A program made the translations under genes and the position numbers. The notes under the pieces were generated by a model, which was given only the letters and a program-made list of their open reading frames with translations, had not been told where the DNA came from and searched no databases. DNA of 64,000 nt from Opitutaceae bacterium. GTDB taxonomy: Bacteria; Verrucomicrobiota; Verrucomicrobiia; Opitutales; Coraliomargaritaceae. Shown here piece after piece: positions 2,255 through 49,217 of this stretch. The stretch spans positions 10,675-74,674 of the forward strand of contig JBPOFY010000012.1 in assembly GCA_051252375.1 (NCBI GenBank), in the 5' to 3' direction. The stretch's first letter is position 1; each line of letters starts with the position of its first letter.

Positions 2255-4984
2255 TTATTGCTCGATCGTGGCTTGTAGTCGTAGCCCGTCGTCTTCGAAG
2301 TGAAGGTTTGCTTTAGCGCGTTTCCAGATGGGATTCATTATGGGCATGGCGGTTTCACCTCTTGGTTCTAAGGGAGAACCGAATGCGACGGACTCCATCG
2401 TTTTTAAGGTTTCATTCCATTGGTAGCCTTGCCCTCCGGGGCAAACGATTTGTTGGTGGAAGGAAGTCGCGTGGACCTCGACTGGATTTTGGCCTGGGAA
2501 GCGCATGTGCCATTCGTTGAGGATTGGTAGGGCACTCCAACTGACTGCTTGTTGTTTGCGCAATGGGCTCTCGCCGCTCCACTGCGGTAAATCTTTTAGG
2601 AAATCAAGTTGTGCAAAACCAAAGATGTGTTGAGGGGCGAGCTCTTCGGCAGGTTCTTCAGGAGCTTCCTTTGCCGCTGCTGCTCGATCCATCGCGCGGT
2701 GCAGCACTTTTTCATCTAGTGAGAGAATTAGGGCATCTTTTTGTGCGGCGTAGTAGAGTGCAATTTCGAGTTCACCAGTGATTGAATCGTCGCCGTTTAT
2801 GACGACGTATGGCTTTTCATTATGTTCGCGTGTTTCCCATCGGAGTAGTCCGGGGGCGGCTTGTTCTGAGAAGCTGCGCAGCCCTGTTAGGAAGATTGCC
2901 AATCGCGCGGTGCTTCGTGATGCGATGCGTATACCGACTGGGAATTTACCGAGGTTGTCTTCGATGTAGTCTTCGGGGTCTTCGGCAGCTTGGACGTCTT
3001 TCCAAAATGGTGTGGCATCGATGAAGATCGAGATTGATTGCCCGATCCATGCCAGAGGGTTGGCTTGAAAGCCTGGCACCATGGATTGGCTAAAGCTATT
3101 TGCCTGCATGAAGGGTGCGCTCTCGGGATCGACCGCAAAGGAGGTGAAGATCAATGCTTCGGGGTGTGCTTTGCGGGCGGGGGCGTCGAGTGTGGCGTCG
3201 CCGGCAAGTTCGATCCAGTCGTCGTATTCGCTGCCAAGGGTTAATGGGATGACGGACAGATCAACGGCATAGCTGGTTTCTGTGATTTTCAGGCTCAATG
3301 CAATGGGGTCGAAGACTCGCCAGCCGTTTTCATAGCCACGTCGCCAGCGTAGGTATCCGTCTTGTTCGACCTTGGTGACGGTCTCGATGTTCAATTCTGA
3401 ATTGGGGGTGAGGAAGGCGAGTGTGTTGTAGTGTTCGCTTTGCGCGGTTTTGCCGTCGGCTTCTATTGTGCCGACGAGTGCTTTGTAGTCATCACCGAGA
3501 GGTTGATCGTCGATAAGTCTGGCAGTTGACTCTGCGAGGACGGCTGCGGCTCGGGTGCGGCGCGATGCTCCGATGCGGACCGCGGGGCTGCCCCAGCGGC
3601 GAATGGTGGCGTCGGATAGAAAGAGAAAGGCGCTGGCGTCGTTCGCGAGTGGATAGCGTTGGCGAAAGTATTTAAATTCATCCGTGCTGGCGAGTGAGGG
3701 GCTGTCTCCCTTAGTCACGGCGGAAAGGTGTTTTAGTTGCGCAGGTGAATTGGCGACCGCGACATAGTGTTCACTTTGAAAAATGTAAGCCGAGAAGCTG
3801 CGATCTGCGGTGGTATATGCGACGGAGCCTTTGCTGAGTTTTTCAGTCGTCGCTCCGACTGCGTTGGCTTGTAGCCCGACGAAGCTAGAGATCGCGGCGA
3901 AGAGTGCCTCGGGTTGAGCGCTTTCAAAGACAACAGCGACGTCGGTTCCGGACGGGAAGAACGGATCGCCGCCTGTAATGGCGACACTCTTGATTGGCAT
4001 TTTCTCGGAGATCACATTCGGGATGCGTAGTCCCATTTGTCCTTCGTAGCGGTCGATGAGTTTCCGGTAAGGATTCGTGGTGCTGCGTGCCTCAAGTGCG
4101 GGCGCACTTTCGCTGTCGAGCGCGTCCATTGTTTGATTGAGTGCCTTGATTGAAGGAAAGAAGACCGCGTGTTGATCTTCGGGGAGGTGTGTCGCTAGTG
4201 GGTCGAGTGGCACTTCTTTAGAATGTAAGCGCTCAGACCAGTCGATGGCGCGGACAGTAATACCTTGAATGGATTTGAGTGGGATGGGGGCCTTGTCTTC
4301 TTCTTTTTCGGACTCGGCTAGTATGATGGCGCGATCGAGTGCTAGATTTTCAGCAATGGCTCGGTGCCCGCTGAATAAATTAAAGGTTTGGTTGAGATGG
4401 CTTTCTCGGCTGTTTGTAAACGGGTCGATTGGGTTTTCTGTGAGCGCCGGATCAGAAGGGTCTCCTGAAATATGGCGAAACCAGGCTGAACCTGGTATAG
4501 CAGCCTTCGATAGGCGGATATAATTGCTTTTGCGGACAGCTTCAAAAGCTTCGCGAGTGGTGGGTTCTACCGTTGTTGGGTCGAACTTGAAGGGTATGCC
4601 TCGCAATTGCGGTGTGCCAGGAGATCGCAGTATGGCCGAACCTGTGATGGTCGCTTCATTTTCCAGTCGTATGCCAACCAGTAATGAGCCTTGCCGCATC
4701 CACCAACGATTGTTGGCCTCGTCTTCATCTGGCAGTGGGAAGCCAATATATGCTTCCGCATCTGCCTGCTCGATTTGCAGGTATGGGAATTGGGCTAGAC
4801 CCAGTCCGCGCCGAGATTGCCGTTGGATTGATTGGCTGTATATCCGATCGAGGCTTGTGTCGCCCTCGACTTCAAATTGCAGGTTTCGCACTTCGACCAC
4901 GTAGTAACTTTCCGCCTGAGCGGTGCCACCAAGTGCGCATAGCGCGATTAAAACAAGAGGGGGTATACAATCACGCAGCTTCAT
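2255..4984 (-). CDS. Hypothetical secreted protein (909 aa)
   Basis: Long uninterrupted ORF with an ATG start and a signal-like N-terminus (MKLRDCIPPLVLIALCALGGTAQA). No domain recognised by eye. Confidence 0.6.
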   Translation of the reverse strand: MKLRDCIPPLVLIALCALGGTAQAESYYVVEVRNLQFEVEGDTSLDRIYSQSIQRQSRRGLGLAQFPYLQIEQADAEAYIGFPLPDEDEANNRWWMRQGSLLVGIRLENEATITGSAILRSPGTPQLRGIPFKFDPTTVEPTTREAFEAVRKSNYIRLSKAAIPGSAWFRHISGDPSDPALTENPIDPFTNSRESHLNQTFNLFSGHRAIAENLALDRAIILAESEKEEDKAPIPLKSIQGITVRAIDWSERLHSKEVPLDPLATHLPEDQHAVFFPSIKALNQTMDALDSESAPALEARSTTNPYRKLIDRYEGQMGLRIPNVISEKMPIKSVAITGGDPFFPSGTDVAVVFESAQPEALFAAISSFVGLQANAVGATTEKLSKGSVAYTTADRSFSAYIFQSEHYVAVANSPAQLKHLSAVTKGDSPSLASTDEFKYFRQRYPLANDASAFLFLSDATIRRWGSPAVRIGASRRTRAAAVLAESTARLIDDQPLGDDYKALVGTIEADGKTAQSEHYNTLAFLTPNSELNIETVTKVEQDGYLRWRRGYENGWRVFDPIALSLKITETSYAVDLSVIPLTLGSEYDDWIELAGDATLDAPARKAHPEALIFTSFAVDPESAPFMQANSFSQSMVPGFQANPLAWIGQSISIFIDATPFWKDVQAAEDPEDYIEDNLGKFPVGIRIASRSTARLAIFLTGLRSFSEQAAPGLLRWETREHNEKPYVVINGDDSITGELEIALYYAAQKDALILSLDEKVLHRAMDRAAAAKEAPEEPAEELAPQHIFGFAQLDFLKDLPQWSGESPLRKQQAVSWSALPILNEWHMRFPGQNPVEVHATSFHQQIVCPGGQGYQWNETLKTMESVAFGSPLEPRGETAMPIMNPIWKRAKANLHFEDDGLRLQATIEQ

Positions 4985-6624: not shown

Positions 6625-6945
6625 ATGGCACTTAAAATCCGTCTCCAACGTCATGGCGCAAGCCACCGTCCTTTTTACCGCATGGTTGTTACCGAAGCAC
6701 TTGCTCGTCGTGACGGCCGTTTCGTCGAAGTGCTTGGCACTTACGAGCCTCAAGCTAAACGCTCTGAGGACGAAGTGAAGATCAAGCTTGATCGCGTTGA
6801 TTACTGGAAGTCTGTAGGTGCCAAGGCAACTGACACAGCTGCCAGCCTTATCCGTAAGGCACGTCGTGAAGCTCCAGCAGAAGTTGAAGCAGAAGCCGCT
6901 CCAGCAGCAGCCGAAGCTCCAGCAGCAGCTGAAGCCGAAGCGTAA
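6625..6945 (+). CDS. rpsP: 30S ribosomal protein S16 with an Ala/Glu-rich C-terminal tail
   Basis: MALKIRLQRHGASHRPFYRMVV...DGRFVEVLGTYEP is the canonical S16 N-terminus. Confidence 0.95.
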   Translation: MALKIRLQRHGASHRPFYRMVVTEALARRDGRFVEVLGTYEPQAKRSEDEVKIKLDRVDYWKSVGAKATDTAASLIRKARREAPAEVEAEAAPAAAEAPAAAEAEA

Positions 6946-6985
6946 ATCATTTTTCCCGAGTTCGGGAACTCGACCGATTGCTCTG

Positions 6986-7671
<686 letters not shown>

Positions 7672-7675
<4 letters not shown>

Positions 7676-9141: not shown

Positions 9142-10326
9142 TTACGCTTTCACCAGTGCGGCTGCGTAAAATCCATCATAGCCAGTGACTGCGGGCGAGA
9201 CGATGCATTCTTCGACGAGGCTGAAATTACCTCCTGCGATGAGTTGATCCACTGCGGCGCGATTCTCAGATGGCAGGACGGAGCATGTGGCATAGACCAA
9301 TCGTCCGCCAGGTTTCAACATCTGGGTGTAGCTTGCGAGGAGCTCGGCTTGAGTCGCACGCACTTTCTGCAATTGATCGGCGGTGAGACGCCACTTGAGA
9401 TCGGGTTGTCGCTTTAATGTGCCGAGACCGGAGCAGGGGGAATCGATCAAAAGACCGTCTGCGGCTTCGCGGTATGTCTCTATCGTGTCAGGTGTGATGA
9501 CTTGTGTTTCGATACACTTGGAGGCTCTGGCGCGTTGCGCGCGTCGCTCTAGCTCTTGTAACTTCCGTGGATGGATATCCATGGCAATGATGCGCCCCTC
9601 GTTTTGCATCAGTGCTGCGAGATGCAGTGTCTTGCCGCCGGCGCCTGCGCACGTATCGATAATAAAGTCACCGGTTTGCGGTTTGAGTAGCGGCGCAATC
9701 ATTTGTGATCCGGCGTCCTGTATCTCGACGCGACCATCCATACGAACTGATTTGGGAATGGTTTTACCCGGCAACAGAGCCAAGGTGTGAGGTAGCCCTT
9801 CGACAGCTTCGGCGGTGATGTGATACTCCGATGCCAGCCATTCGATCGCTGCCGACGGGCTGGTCTTCAAGGTGTTGACGCGCAGGTAGACGCGGGTGCG
9901 TTGATTGAGCGCGGTGATCTCGTTGTCCCATGTTTCACCGAGCTCTGCTTGCCCAAGGGCATCCAACCAATCAGGGATAGATTCGCGAATGGTGCGGGGT
10001 TGCTCGGCGAGTAAGCCCTCTCGTGTGCGCATCTCGTCGGAGGTGGCACCGGGATGCTCCCACCAGTCTGGTAGTTCAAAGCCCATACGCACCCATTGAG
10101 CAGCGCAGAGCGCAGGGACCTCTTCGCTCTCGACCAAAAATTGGAGGGTCCGTCGCCAGCGGATCACTTCAAAGACTGTTTCAGCGATAAAGCTGCGGTC
10201 GCGCTTGCCCCATTTCGGGTGTGACTCGAATGCCTTGGCTAGCGCATGATCCACCACTTTGCCTTCGTTCAGGGCAGACTGAATAATTTCGGCGGCGGCG
10301 TTGGCCAAGATGCGGTGCATTCTCAT
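9142..10326 (-). CDS. rsmB: RsmB/Sun-family 16S rRNA m5C methyltransferase
   Basis: NusB-like N-terminal part, SAM motif DTCAGAGGKTLHLAALM, catalytic IDSPCSGLGTLKRQPDLKWR and VYATCS. Start uncertain (TTG 10362, ATG 10326 or 10320). Confidence 0.75.
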   Translation of the reverse strand: MRMHRILANAAAEIIQSALNEGKVVDHALAKAFESHPKWGKRDRSFIAETVFEVIRWRRTLQFLVESEEVPALCAAQWVRMGFELPDWWEHPGATSDEMRTREGLLAEQPRTIRESIPDWLDALGQAELGETWDNEITALNQRTRVYLRVNTLKTSPSAAIEWLASEYHITAEAVEGLPHTLALLPGKTIPKSVRMDGRVEIQDAGSQMIAPLLKPQTGDFIIDTCAGAGGKTLHLAALMQNEGRIIAMDIHPRKLQELERRAQRARASKCIETQVITPDTIETYREAADGLLIDSPCSGLGTLKRQPDLKWRLTADQLQKVRATQAELLASYTQMLKPGGRLVYATCSVLPSENRAAVDQLIAGGNFSLVEECIVSPAVTGYDGFYAAALVKA

Positions 10327-24346: not shown

Positions 24347-30145
<5,799 letters not shown>

Positions 30146-46033: not shown

Positions 46034-46107
46034 AATCCTAATCGATTCATCTGGGTGGAGACTCGAGGGCGTATGCTCTGTTGGAAGATTAAGATTATGA
46101 TTAGGAG
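46024..46107 (-). promoter_or_regulatory. Candidate translational-control helix sequestering the SD and AUG of gene 45491..46033
   Basis: Minus-strand RNA: 5' UCCUAAUCAUAAUCUUAAUC ...43 nt... GAUUAGGAUUAUGAUUAAGA 3'. Of 20 positions, 18 are Watson-Crick pairs, one is G-U and one is a C-A mismatch. The 3' arm contains AGGA and the AUG. Confidence 0.35.
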
Positions 46108-46134
46108 CAAGATTGAGCCGCTAGCCGCTTGCGG

Positions 46135-47460
46135 CTAAGGGAAAACGCCGCGCATTTTATAGACTTTATCGAGGTGCTCAATCGCGGAGGCGTAGGAGGC
46201 GACGCGCATACTGCATTTGAGTCGGTCGGCCATTTCGAGGACGCGTTTGGCGGAGCCTACCATGACTTTTCGTAGGCGCTCATCGACCACCTCTTCGTCC
46301 CATGTCTCCGACTGACGGTTTTGTTTCCATTCGAAGTAGCTTACAGTGACGCCACCCGCGTTGCAGAGGATTGCGGGCAAGATTGCCACGCCCTTATCGA
46401 GTAGATATTGTTCTGCGTGTGGCGTGGTCGGTGCGTTGGCCGCTTCGACTAGCACTTTACAACTGATGAGTTTGGCGTGTTCCAAATCGACCATTTGTTC
46501 CAGCGCAGCTGGGATGAAGAGATCTACCGGTGTGCTATAGAATGTTTCGTTGGAGATGGCTTCTGCGTCGGCGTAGCCTGCAACGCCGCCTGTGACTTTC
46601 ACGTGTTCGGCCAATTTCTGCGCGTCGATTCCGGTTTCGTGGAAAATAGCGCCAGTGTGGTCCATCACTGTTTTTAAGATGGAGCCTCGCTGTTGCAGTA
46701 GGCGAGCAGTCCAAGAACCGACATTTCCATAACCGATTAGGCTGTAAGAGAGTTTGCCGATCTCCATACCCATTCCCGGGAGGAGCTCGTCGAGCACATA
46801 GACAAGGCCTTGCCCTGTGGCTTTTTCACGACCAGCGGAGCCGCCAAACTCTAAAGGTTTACCAGTGACCACACCACGTGCGGTGACTTTGGTGGAAGAC
46901 TCCGCGAAATTAATATAGGTGTCGGCCATCCAAGCCATGATTTGACAATTGGTGCCTACGTCGGGTGCTGGGATGTCGTAGTCGGGGCCGATATTGTTGC
47001 CTAGTGCAGCAGTCAGACGGCGGGTCACGCGTTGTAGCTCGGCACGACTCACGGCACGCGGATCGATCTTAAGTGCGCCTTTAGCGCCGCCATAGGGCAG
47101 GCGAGCGAGGGCGCATTTCATCGTCATCAGTAGGGCGAGTGTCTTCACCTCATCGAGTTTAACTTCGGGGTGGTAGCGGATGCCACCTTTGTAGGGACCG
47201 AGCACATTGTTGTGCTGCACGCGGTAGCCTTTAAAAAGTTGCCATGTGCCGTCGTCCATCTGCACGGGGCAGTGAAACATGATCTCATTTTTTGGCTGGC
47301 TGAGAATCAGTTTGAGGCGGTGGGGCACCTCAAGCGCATTGGCGGCTTCGAGCACCGAACTGACGGTTTGGAAGTAGAGGTTATGGTCGTCGTAATAGTC
47401 TTCGAGTTCGTGGAAGATATCGCGGGCGGACTGACATGCGGGGGTATTGCAGGATTCCAT
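46135..47460 (-). CDS. Glutamate dehydrogenase (Glu/Leu/Phe/Val dehydrogenase family)
   Basis: GPYKGGIRYHP, KCALARLPYGGAKG, PAPDVGT, GYGNVG. Confidence 0.9.
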   Translation of the reverse strand: MESCNTPACQSARDIFHELEDYYDDHNLYFQTVSSVLEAANALEVPHRLKLILSQPKNEIMFHCPVQMDDGTWQLFKGYRVQHNNVLGPYKGGIRYHPEVKLDEVKTLALLMTMKCALARLPYGGAKGALKIDPRAVSRAELQRVTRRLTAALGNNIGPDYDIPAPDVGTNCQIMAWMADTYINFAESSTKVTARGVVTGKPLEFGGSAGREKATGQGLVYVLDELLPGMGMEIGKLSYSLIGYGNVGSWTARLLQQRGSILKTVMDHTGAIFHETGIDAQKLAEHVKVTGGVAGYADAEAISNETFYSTPVDLFIPAALEQMVDLEHAKLISCKVLVEAANAPTTPHAEQYLLDKGVAILPAILCNAGGVTVSYFEWKQNRQSETWDEEVVDERLRKVMVGSAKRVLEMADRLKCSMRVASYASAIEHLDKVYKMRGVFP

Positions 47461-47535
47461 ACCAGTAGGCTGTCACTGTTTAAGTTAAAGACAAGCCAGT
47501 GTCGTTTAAAAGATGCAGGTTAAGCGTGCTGCGGA

Positions 47536-47979
47536 TTATAAATCCGGGCCAATTAACTTTTCGATATCACGGCGATCCTTTTTGGTGGGGCGTCCGGTGC
47601 CCTTGTGGCTGAAAAGCTTGGCGTTGGCTTGCTTCTCACGGGCAGCCTCGAATTCGGACTCTGGAGTGCGGTCTTCGAAGTATTGGGGTAGCGCCGCTGC
47701 GCCGACTCGTTTCTCAGTCAGACCGACGACATGGAGTGTCTTGGTGATGGCTTTGGTGCGTGCGATCACAGTGTCTCCGATGTGGACTTTGCCAGATGGC
47801 TTGGCGATGACGTTATTGATGCGCACTGCTGAACCACGGCAAGCTTCAGCGGCATCAGTGCGCGTCTTATATACGCGCACCGCCCAAAGCCATTTGTCTA
47901 AACGAACGGAAGGAACGCTGGGAACGTCGAACGTCGAACGTCCAACGTTCAATTTTGAATGCGATTGCTCTGGGTTCAT
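47536..47979 (-). CDS. S4-domain RNA-binding protein (Hsp15/HslR-like); its N-terminus is encoded by a repeat element
   Basis: VRLDKWLWAVRVYKTRTDAAEACRGSAVRINN is the S4/Hsp15 signature. Residues 1-24 (MNPEQSHSKLNVGRSTFDVPSVPS) are read from family A element A4. Confidence 0.7.
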   Translation of the reverse strand: MNPEQSHSKLNVGRSTFDVPSVPSVRLDKWLWAVRVYKTRTDAAEACRGSAVRINNVIAKPSGKVHIGDTVIARTKAITKTLHVVGLTEKRVGAAALPQYFEDRTPESEFEAAREKQANAKLFSHKGTGRPTKKDRRDIEKLIGPDL

Positions 47980-48051
47980 TTAGTGGGAAGTGGAGAGTGT
48001 CCTTTCTGGAATTCAACATTGGGCGTTCGAAGTTGGACGTTCGAAGTTCCC
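47912..48051. repeat. Family A heptamer-arm palindromic element, copy A4
   Basis: Left arm GGAACGCTGGGAACGTCGAACGTCGAACGTCCAACGTTCAATTTTGAAT (47912-47960); right arm ATTCAACATTGGGCGTTCGAAGTTGGACGTTCGAAGTTCCC (48011-48051). Confidence 0.75.
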
Positions 48052-48059
48052 ATGACTCC

Positions 48060-49217
48060 TTAGCGCTGTTTCAGCGCGCTAGTCATTTTCTCGAGGCCTT
48101 CGATGAGGCGGCTTTGTGGGCAACCGAAATTGAGGCGCACGTGTTGATGTCCGTCGAAAGGAACACCATCGGAGAGACCGACACCGTGGTCTTCGAAAAA
48201 CTTGACTGGGTTGTCGAGCCCGAGCTTCGCGACGTCAAACCATGCCAGATAGGTTGATTGCATCGGGCGGAAAGTAATCTCGGGTATCTGCTCGTTGATG
48301 AACTTATAGAGCAGCTCGTAGTTGCCGCGTAGATACTTAATGAGCTCTAGGCGCCATGGTTCACCGTGGTTATAAGCCGCTTCGCATCCCGCGTAGCCGA
48401 AGCAGTTCACTTCGGTGATGATTCCGCGGATTGTTTTTTGAAATTGCAGGCGTAGCTCCTGATTCTCGATTACGGAAAAAGCACATGCGAGGCCAGGCAA
48501 GTTGTAGGTCTTACTAGGAGCCATCAGTGTGACTGTGCGGGCGGCGATGGTATCGTTGAGGGTCGATGTGACGATGTGCTTGGTCTGCTCATCGAATACG
48601 AGATCGCAGTGGATTTCGTCGGAGATCAGAATGAGGTCGTGGCGCTCGCAGAAGTCCGCGATGCCTGTGAGCTCTTCGCGTGAGAAGACCCGACCGACTG
48701 GATTGTGCGGGCTGCAAAGCACGAAAATCTTGGTCTTCGGTGTGACGGCAGCTTCCATTGCGTCGATGTCGAGCGTCCATTGGTCGGCAGCATTGAGGCA
48801 GAGGGGCACTTTGATCAGTTCACGACCAGCATAGTCGGGAGCAGAGAGGAATGGAGGGTAAACCGGCGTCGCCGTCATTACCGAGTCGCCGGGTTCGGTG
48901 AAGGCGTGGCAACAGAGGTTGATCGCCGGCACGAGACCAGGCAGGAAATTGAGCCAATGTGCTTTGGCGCTATAGCCATGTGCCCGATCTAGGTAGTTCA
49001 CGACCGCTTCGGTGGGTGCATCGAAAGGGATGGTGTAGCCGAAAATACCATGGTCGAGGCGTTGCTGGAGGCCTGCCATGATCTCGGGAGCGGTCTCGAA
49101 GTCCATATCCGCGACCCAGAGTGGTAGGATGTCGCGACCTTTGTATTTGTCCCATTTGAGGCTGCCATAGCCAGTGCGGTCCGGGCAGGTGTCGAAATTG
49201 TAGCTGTGTGCTGTCAT
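48060..49217 (-). CDS. PatB/MalY-family PLP-dependent C-S lyase (cystathionine beta-lyase-like)
   Basis: NFDTCPDRTGYGSLKWD is the typical N-terminus. Class I/II aminotransferase fold (SPHNPVGRVF, APSKTYNLPG). Confidence 0.85.
   Translation of the reverse strand: MTAHSYNFDTCPDRTGYGSLKWDKYKGRDILPLWVADMDFETAPEIMAGLQQRLDHGIFGYTIPFDAPTEAVVNYLDRAHGYSAKAHWLNFLPGLVPAINLCCHAFTEPGDSVMTATPVYPPFLSAPDYAGRELIKVPLCLNAADQWTLDIDAMEAAVTPKTKIFVLCSPHNPVGRVFSREELTGIADFCERHDLILISDEIHCDLVFDEQTKHIVTSTLNDTIAARTVTLMAPSKTYNLPGLACAFSVIENQELRLQFQKTIRGIITEVNCFGYAGCEAAYNHGEPWRLELIKYLRGNYELLYKFINEQIPEITFRPMQSTYLAWFDVAKLGLDNPVKFFEDHGVGLSDGVPFDGHQHVRLNFGCPQSRLIEGLEKMTSALKQR

Follow-up and report, generated by a model that had tools for sequence, protein, structure and literature searches.

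Evidence that a dispersed palindromic repeat has replaced the translation start of an Hsp15-like gene in Opitutales

In the 64-kb stretch of DNA analyzed here (the window), which comes from a marine Opitutales genome, an imperfect palindrome of 140-150 nt, built from SSAACGT heptamer units, lies between two housekeeping genes, one for a PatB-family C-S lyase and one that is Hsp15-like, both of which are on the minus strand. We refer to the repeat as family A. In the direction of transcription, the locus reads as follows.

48060..49217, minus strand: PatB-family C-S lyase gene, 385 aa, the upstream neighbor, with its stop codon TAA at 48062-48060
48011..48051, minus strand: distal (upstream) arm of the family-A palindrome, non-coding here; the minus strand reads gggaacttcgaacgtccaacttcgaacgcccaatgttgaatt and carries the signature AACGTCCAACTTCGAA
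47962..48010, minus strand: locus-specific spacer, the predicted hairpin loop, holding an in-frame TAA (47982-47980) and an ATG
47977..47979, minus strand: this ATG, the sole ATG of the ORF and most likely where translation of the Hsp15-like gene starts
47920..47961, minus strand: proximal arm of the palindrome, translated as residues 7-20 (HSKLNVGRSTFDVP)
47950..47952, minus strand: TTG inside the proximal arm, the sole alternative canonical start
47905..47922, minus strand: junction, an imperfect 9-nt tandem duplication (cccagcgtt / ccttccgtt) covering residues P20-V25
47536..47904, minus strand: conserved core of the Hsp15-like gene from R26 to the stop, with S4 domain and C-terminal helix

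The upstream gene scores 438 bits against the PatB family model TIGR04350 (cut-off 340) over residues 8-383 of 385, and PF00155 also matches. The order of spermine-synthase-like, PatB, Hsp15, and GDH genes is kept in relatives. The downstream ORF (47536-47979, minus strand) encodes 147 aa, with an S4 domain at residues 25-71 (PF01479, 36.8 bits against a cut-off of 22.8). Its AF2 model (mean pLDDT 81.6; 89-95 for residues 21-110) has the Hsp15 fold, and the top Foldseek matches are the solved Hsp15 structures 5Z81, 1DM9, and 8AP4, with E values of 1e-9 to 2e-7 and target-normalized TM scores of 0.74-0.81. We use the name Hsp15-like, and not Hsp15 equivalog, because the protein reaches only 65 bits against the NCBIfam equivalog model NF007673, the cut-off of which is 148. 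Thousands of relatives were found in a protein search, and those closest came from Lentimonas/Coraliomargarita-type Opitutales; the exact sequence of the window's protein is not on record. Residues 1-20, which form a tail ahead of the conserved domain, are modeled as coil with no secondary structure (pLDDT 49-58). This added tail is predicted to be disordered, and we infer that it is functionally neutral.

The palindrome was recovered in a repeat search as two 51-nt arms that are 78% complementary (47910-47960 and 48011-48061), with a core of 33 nt that is 85% complementary (47922-47954 and 48010-48042); it is by weak pairing that the distal arm reaches 48061. When the minus strand from 48065 to 47900 is folded as RNA, the predicted energy is -53.4 kcal/mol (z = -4.43), a value that 0 of 200 shuffled sequences equaled. 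Each arm can also fold on itself, with a 13-nt stem that is 85% paired and a 3-nt loop, and CGTC recurs within the heptamers. An earlier note on this DNA, made from the letters alone, had described the distal arm as non-coding and 9 nt from the stop of the PatB-like gene. The former holds, and the distance is 8 nt, as the arm ends at 48051. In the source metagenome, the spacer is single copy and the arms are multi-copy. Specifically, the 42-nt stretch of the proximal arm (47920..47961) matches dozens of other contigs at a depth of 9230 compared with 85, an excess of about 100-fold.

Family A occurs at further places in the window, all of them within a tandem-UvrA ORF on the minus strand (24347-30145).

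27104..27250, minus strand: second family-A copy, translated in frame as part of the linker that joins the two UvrA units of the 1932-aa ORF
26065..26086, minus strand: half copy consisting of one short arm, in frame in uvrA
25168..25272, minus strand: third family-A copy, in the reading frame of the second UvrA unit, where it adds about 40 residues compared with the solved UvrA 2R6F

The 20-mer CGAACGTCGAACGTCCAACG, allowing up to three mismatches, has 11 matches at three places in the window where 0.00 are expected, and the 16-mer signature AACGTCCAACTTCGAA is common to all three copies. Occurring in three complete copies and a half copy within 64 kb, the repeat is a dispersed, multi-copy palindrome of about 100-150 nt, as RPEs are. 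The tandem-UvrA ORF runs through the copies, which share one orientation and one reading frame (ER.TSN...STSN ... SKLDVG.STF). They stand in a conserved gene and are missing from its orthologues; the linker that holds the second copy is short or different in homologues, where the copy is absent or partial. In-frame copies of this kind support a repeat that acts at the level of DNA. The earlier note had proposed a DNA-level origin on the grounds that the same element type is seen both coding and non-coding, a view that is borne out by the uvrA copies and by the excess depth of the arm. None of the six frames of idealized heptamer arrays has a stop codon, and so copies survive in coding DNA. The spacers of the three copies are unrelated and measure about 24, 49, and 70 nt. 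Family A is a dispersed, stop-codon-poor palindromic repeat, composed of two inverted SSAACGT arrays around a variable spacer, that behaves like REP/RPE. We also considered whether the element had fused two separate uvrA genes. Tandem UvrA with a contiguous junction is widespread in many phyla, so the fusion was not created by the element, which is an insertion into an existing linker. A second family of palindromes (GGTAGGGAC...GTCCCTACC) is represented twice in the same ORF, at 27523-27592 and 28774-28843; its translation is GRDACPQAS..., and it looks like a GTAG-type REP dimer, of the sort described from the uvrA genes of Opitutus terrae.

Beyond the window, a strict search for family-A arrays in about 1.1 Mb of relatives' flanking DNA gave matches only at the Hsp15 locus. 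The 16-mer signature is found in no fewer than 120 metagenome contigs, which come from soils, sediments, and waters, and many or most of them have full inverted heptamer arrays. These signature-bearing loci are numbered L090-L169, for example L117 (5527), L116 (1566), L156 (3803), L100 (2648), L108 (8708), and L113 (6414). A large subclass has a conserved interior (TTCGAATAAGGTATTCTGTCGATTTTGA ... GACGGAGCGAAGCGATCTCCACATTCGA) along with conserved flanks, and whole elements form tandem arrays at L129, L138, L118, and L146. It is unusual for REP-like elements that a repeat should be common to such different bacteria. This hints, if only faintly, that heptamer-array palindromes may be a cross-phylum element class with an undescribed mobilizing or binding protein.

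We compared the PatB–Hsp15 locus across 34 species-representative Opitutales genomes and several metagenome contigs. The N-termini of the orthologues fall into two classes, a SHORT form (M-[DE]-S-V-RLDKWLW) and a LONG form (M..EQSH-SKLNVGRSTFDV.S-VRLDKWLW). In 24 of the 34 representatives, the start is an ATG four codons before the arginine of the invariant RLDKWLW (M-[DE]-S-V-R). The earlier note had suggested comparing orthologous N-termini and looking for relatives with an empty site. Both were found: unfused orthologues start in the SHORT manner and have none of the element's peptide, and in distant Opitutales the PatB stop is followed by 1-36 nt and then the ATG, with no repeat. Codon 22 in the window (47916-47914) aligns with this ancestral ATG and reads GTT; the corresponding codon is ATT in L003-5, GCT in L008 and L010, and CCC in L009. 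Since the window has GTT CCT where relatives read ATG GAT, no start is left outside the element.

The gene has nevertheless remained under selection. Over 114 codons from R26, the median dN/dS of the core is 0.104 among LONG alleles and 0.102 among SHORT alleles; between the window and L003 it is 0.045 at a dS of 1.8. R26, D28, W30, L31, and W32 are invariant. This equal constraint indicates that the gene is alive and expressed, and because RLDKWLW and the core are under purifying selection in fused lineages, translation must begin 5' of R26. The in-frame starts available there are just two, the ATG (25 codons before R) and the TTG (16 codons before R); the next GTG is codon 34, within the invariant S4 motif. 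The earlier note had read the locus in the same way, with the only ATG of the ORF in the palindrome spacer, the proximal arm translated as SKLNVGRSTFDVPSVPS directly before VRLDKWLW, and no start between the arm and the S4 domain apart from the TTG inside the arm. Each of these readings stands: the ATG encodes the single methionine of the 147-aa protein, and the note's larger claim, that the element supplies the start of the S4/Hsp15-like gene, is supported by the lost ancestral start and the constrained core. The LONG architecture recurs in at least 10 other assemblies (L003-5, L086, L087/88, L089, L007, L008, L009, and L010), and the sole start of these alleles always lies within a family-A element or its remnant. 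In most it is the spacer ATG, and in L009 and L089 it is an ATG of the distal arm (ccaATGtcgaa). Taken together, the comparisons support the view that a dispersed palindromic repeat has replaced the original start of the Hsp15-like gene and that the element is now obligatory for its translation. We put the probability that the start lies somewhere within the element at about 0.9, a figure that rests on sequence comparison.

Several other readings of the locus can be set against this one. The element may supply the start through the TTG at 47952-47950, which would give a protein of 138 aa with a 15-residue tail. The TTG is a canonical bacterial start in frame, it is present in the window, L003-5, and L007, and, as part of K-L-D/N-V, it belongs to the arm consensus of the uvrA copies. 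We nonetheless consider it an unlikely start. The codon has become TCG in L008 and L010, where only the ATG remains, and the UUG is predicted to lie in the stem, with a probability of being unpaired of 0.30 compared with 0.67 for the AUG in the hairpin loop. Unlike the TTG, the spacer ATG is conserved across LONG alleles, being kept at the same place in the window, L086, L003-5, L087, L007, L008, and L010. The spacer ATG is thus probably the start codon, although a ribosome that used it would have to melt a -53 kcal/mol hairpin right after initiation. Loss of the ancestral ATG would also be expected if nothing were translated from the element, that is, if the gene were a decaying pseudogene or began at a non-canonical codon near the S4 domain. 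This is very improbable, given that the dN/dS of the core (0.04-0.10) is as low as in SHORT lineages, on which ground we reject a pseudogene, that at least 10 independent LONG assemblies retain an intact ORF, and that in the window the codons from the arm to R26 include no ATT, ATC, ATA, or CTG. A further concern is that the arrangement could have arisen when contigs were joined across a repeated arm, and Logan contigs of the source run do break inside the arm (47932-47958). Contigs about 95.5% identical, from two other runs, extend over 47543-48357 and 47543-48145 in colinear form and without gaps, and the same architecture appears in the unrelated assemblies L003-5, L086, and L087. These observations rule out misassembly, which we regard as scarcely credible.

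A different kind of alternative, and one compatible with an element-borne start, is that the palindrome is kept mainly as a functional nucleic-acid structure and that the coded tail is a by-product. Such a structure might be an mRNA hairpin that affects the stability of the PatB message or the rate of Hsp15 translation, or it might be a protein-binding array. From the PatB stop to R26, LONG lineages are 81-91% identical at aligned positions, including the single-copy spacer, when third codon positions are only 45-55% identical; such conservation, the strong predicted fold, an RNA contig of a relative that reads through the element, and the presence of related heptamer palindromes in very different bacteria would all be in keeping with selection on structure. 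Yet other copies have spacers that resemble this one in neither sequence nor length, other lineages have quite different repeats or none at the same spot, and in L008 the distal arm has decayed where the coding arm persists. Furthermore, the predicted accessibility of the AUG is flat from 15 to 45 C, which led us to drop an RNA thermometer as an explanation. Rfam found only two tRNAs in the window, with no family at the element, and nothing in 15 metagenome loci with related palindromes. On balance, we see conservation for structure as possible but doubtful.

If translation does begin at the spacer ATG, the Hsp15-like protein would probably gain a floppy tail of about 20-24 residues, as the model of the protein suggests, from the spacer and the proximal arm. 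An in-frame TAA (47982-47980) stands directly 5' of this ATG. A Shine-Dalgarno-like motif lies 6-16 nt before the start in only 1 of 30 gene starts of long ORFs in the window, and the genome apparently initiates translation largely without such pairing. Because Shine-Dalgarno sites are hardly used, the absence of one before the ATG is normal. Scans of 47400-48400 found no sigma-70-like promoter 5' of the ATG, and the sole terminator-like match in an arm sits on the opposite strand. A sigma-32-like promoter noticed by eye in the window (TTGAAT-N15-CTCCACTT) was discarded, as a 7-nt insertion in L003-5 breaks its spacing. The RNA contig mentioned above is a metatranscriptome contig of 467 nt at depth 6, from a relative with a SHORT allele. 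It runs from the 3' end of PatB across 116 nt into the Hsp15 gene, and its middle piece fits the allele of L006 exactly. The contig could be DNA carry-over; if it is truly RNA, PatB and Hsp15 are co-transcribed and the palindrome is no efficient terminator. Elsewhere in the window, the 285-aa TrmD-like ORF at 6818-7675 (plus strand) has a Pfam domain that begins at residue 84, and so either its listed start is too far upstream or it, too, has an N-terminal extension.

Comparison with the sister of the window, L006, suggests how the replacement may have come about. The two genomes have GDH proteins that are 98.9% and PatB proteins that are 96.4% identical at the amino acid level, and their DNA is 95-100% identical up to the edges of the element. 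L006 has a family-A palindrome at the same site directly after the PatB stop, with a shorter and different spacer. The element is followed by gttcccatttcaaagaaATGGATAGCGTTCGT, and L006 keeps ATGGATAGC downstream, with the ancestral start intact 11 nt after the proximal arm; the much more distant L023 and L034 have the same junction. The window reads gttcccagcgttccttccGTTCGT, which, compared with L006, is without tttcaaagaaATGGATa and with the imperfect 9-nt tandem duplication. Its junction (47905..47922) stands where the ancestral ...atttcaaagaaATGGATAGC was in alignments with L006, L003, and L086. L086 (P0001) has a simple form, gttccagctgtgcgc, with no duplication.

From these alleles, we propose that an ancestor of this Opitutales clade carried a family-A copy in the very short PatB–Hsp15 gap, 5' of the original start (ATG GAT/GAA AGC GTT CGT). 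In the window allele, about 17 nt (tttcaaagaaATGGATa) would then have been lost at the gene-proximal edge of the element, a deletion route that rests on alignment through repetitive sequence. The loss would have joined the proximal arm in frame to the S/V-R26 codons. Translation would now start inside the element, most likely at the hairpin-loop ATG (47979-47977), and yield an otherwise normal Hsp15-like S4 protein with a disordered N-terminal tail, with the distal arm remaining untranslated after the PatB stop. The element was thus probably not inserted into the gene; it would already have been intergenic and become fused to the gene by a small deletion at its edge.

The distribution of alleles adds a historical question. 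LONG alleles are scattered on a neighbor-joining tree of three flanking proteins, a pattern that would require either polymorphism of long standing or recombination between lineages. Genomes whose flanks are 95-100% identical carry different alleles, one fused and the other unfused, and the window allele is not derived directly from an L006-like allele because the two spacers differ. The spacer is nearly identical in L003-5 despite saturated synonymous divergence. At this locus, the difference between the window and L006 is confined to the segment from the PatB stop to R26. Exchange of that segment between lineages could account for the pattern, as could the maintenance of two old alleles or constraint on the nucleotides themselves. 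One could go further and view the element-borne start region as a selected, exchangeable "start cassette" rather than a passive accident. This has as its premise that LONG and SHORT alleles are both older than the near-identical lineages that now carry them, and we give it little credence. The conserved start segment and the coexisting alleles would fit either a balanced polymorphism kept over long periods or a hairpin, tuning the expression of a ribosome-rescue factor, that has been passed repeatedly between lineages by recombination.

The region around the Hsp15-like gene is variable in other respects. The short PatB–Hsp15 gap is also a hot spot in relatives, where repeats of quite different kinds precede the Hsp15 start, including a CACAGAT-type palindrome in L001/2 (2900-3000), CTCAAGTCTC-type direct repeats in L011/16/19/25, a GTAGGGGCGC palindrome in L015, CCACTCAA repeats in L017, and GCATCCC repeats in L012. 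In L009 (about 9985-10048), the distal arm contains both the PatB stop TGA and, 14 nt further on, the Hsp15 ATG, such that one element supplies both the end of the PatB gene and the start of the Hsp15 gene. In L087/L088 (about 2045-2075), a 27-nt segment, tgctccgccatctccggcagacctccg (CSAISGRPP), is nested in frame inside the LONG coding arm. L014 and P0037 are tied to the same motif, and CDAISGRPT occurs in other Hsp15 N-termini; the segment is probably a third small repeat family. Two intergenic stretches of the window have been replaced or have strongly diverged relative to relatives that are otherwise 95-99% identical, with nearly identical genes on either side. One lies between GDH and a 180-aa ORF (46048-46118). 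The other lies between Hsp15 and GDH (47461-47543), where 81 nt are missing from contigs of runs X5 and X6 and 88 different letters stand in their place.

The locus has implications for both annotation and evolution. An N-terminal extension that overlaps a repeat is usually taken for an error and trimmed; at this locus, such trimming would strip the gene of any start codon. More generally, a selfish or structural repeat can take over a translation start, and in this case a near-isogenic unfused allele is available for comparison. The conditions for such a takeover would be that the repeat is close to the start, that it is free of stop codons, and that translation in the genome does not depend on Shine-Dalgarno sites. 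Fused and unfused alleles offer a natural comparison for examining how a tail or a 5' hairpin affects an Hsp15-type ribosome-rescue factor.

Family A can be placed alongside several kinds of small bacterial repeat. Neisseria Correia elements and other bacterial MITEs are small inverted repeats near genes that can alter gene ends, promoters, and transcript processing, and MITEs have a conserved interior and target-site duplications. In contrast, the three family-A copies in the window, with their unrelated spacers, have no flanking direct repeats and no conserved interior. The STRR sequences of cyanobacteria are described as direct arrays of 7-nt tandem units in intergenic DNA. Family A differs from them in having two inverted arrays that form a long hairpin, as well as in unit sequence and taxa.

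REP, BIME, and REPIN elements, like family A, are short palindromic repeats, often inverted dimers, situated just after stop codons. A REP unit is a stem-loop of 20-40 nt with a conserved terminal GTAG/CGTC and a single 8-9 bp stem with a 4-5 nt loop, whereas family-A arms are about 42 nt of heptamer units without a single terminal tag. Furthermore, none of the 25 ORFs scanned with Pfam in the window, which covers 64 kb of the genome, encodes the Y1 (RAYT) transposase associated with REP and REPIN elements. Di Nocera et al. (2013) catalogued REPs inside ORFs, including both Opitutus terrae uvrA genes and annotated N-termini, and argued that most N-terminal REPs are probably extragenic or annotation artifacts with the real start downstream (PMC3733652). 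Unlike those cases, the gene described here has no downstream start. According to a passage in the same source, Rickettsia conorii proteins with an RPE-1-decorated N-terminus have been reported to be expressed (PMC3733652). Like RPE-1, family A consists of dispersed palindromes of about 100-150 nt that are found both in intergenic DNA and in frame inside conserved genes, where they add short, tolerated peptides. It differs in its host, the Opitutales of the unrelated phylum Verrucomicrobiota, in the tandem heptamers of its arms, and in a spacer that varies in length and sequence. The likeness is one of shared behavior, which in itself does not make family A a member of the RPEs. The RPE comparison also parts ways in that the ancestral start has demonstrably been lost here, which makes the element obligatory for translation. 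Our search of the literature for heptamer palindromes and REP-derived start codons found nothing specific beyond PMC3733652. REP and RPE sequences translated as parts of proteins have already been described, and the value of this locus is that of a well-documented instance, not of a new mechanism. It is set apart by heptamer arrays with a variable spacer, by the loss of the ancestral start, and by an unfused allele in a near-identical genome.
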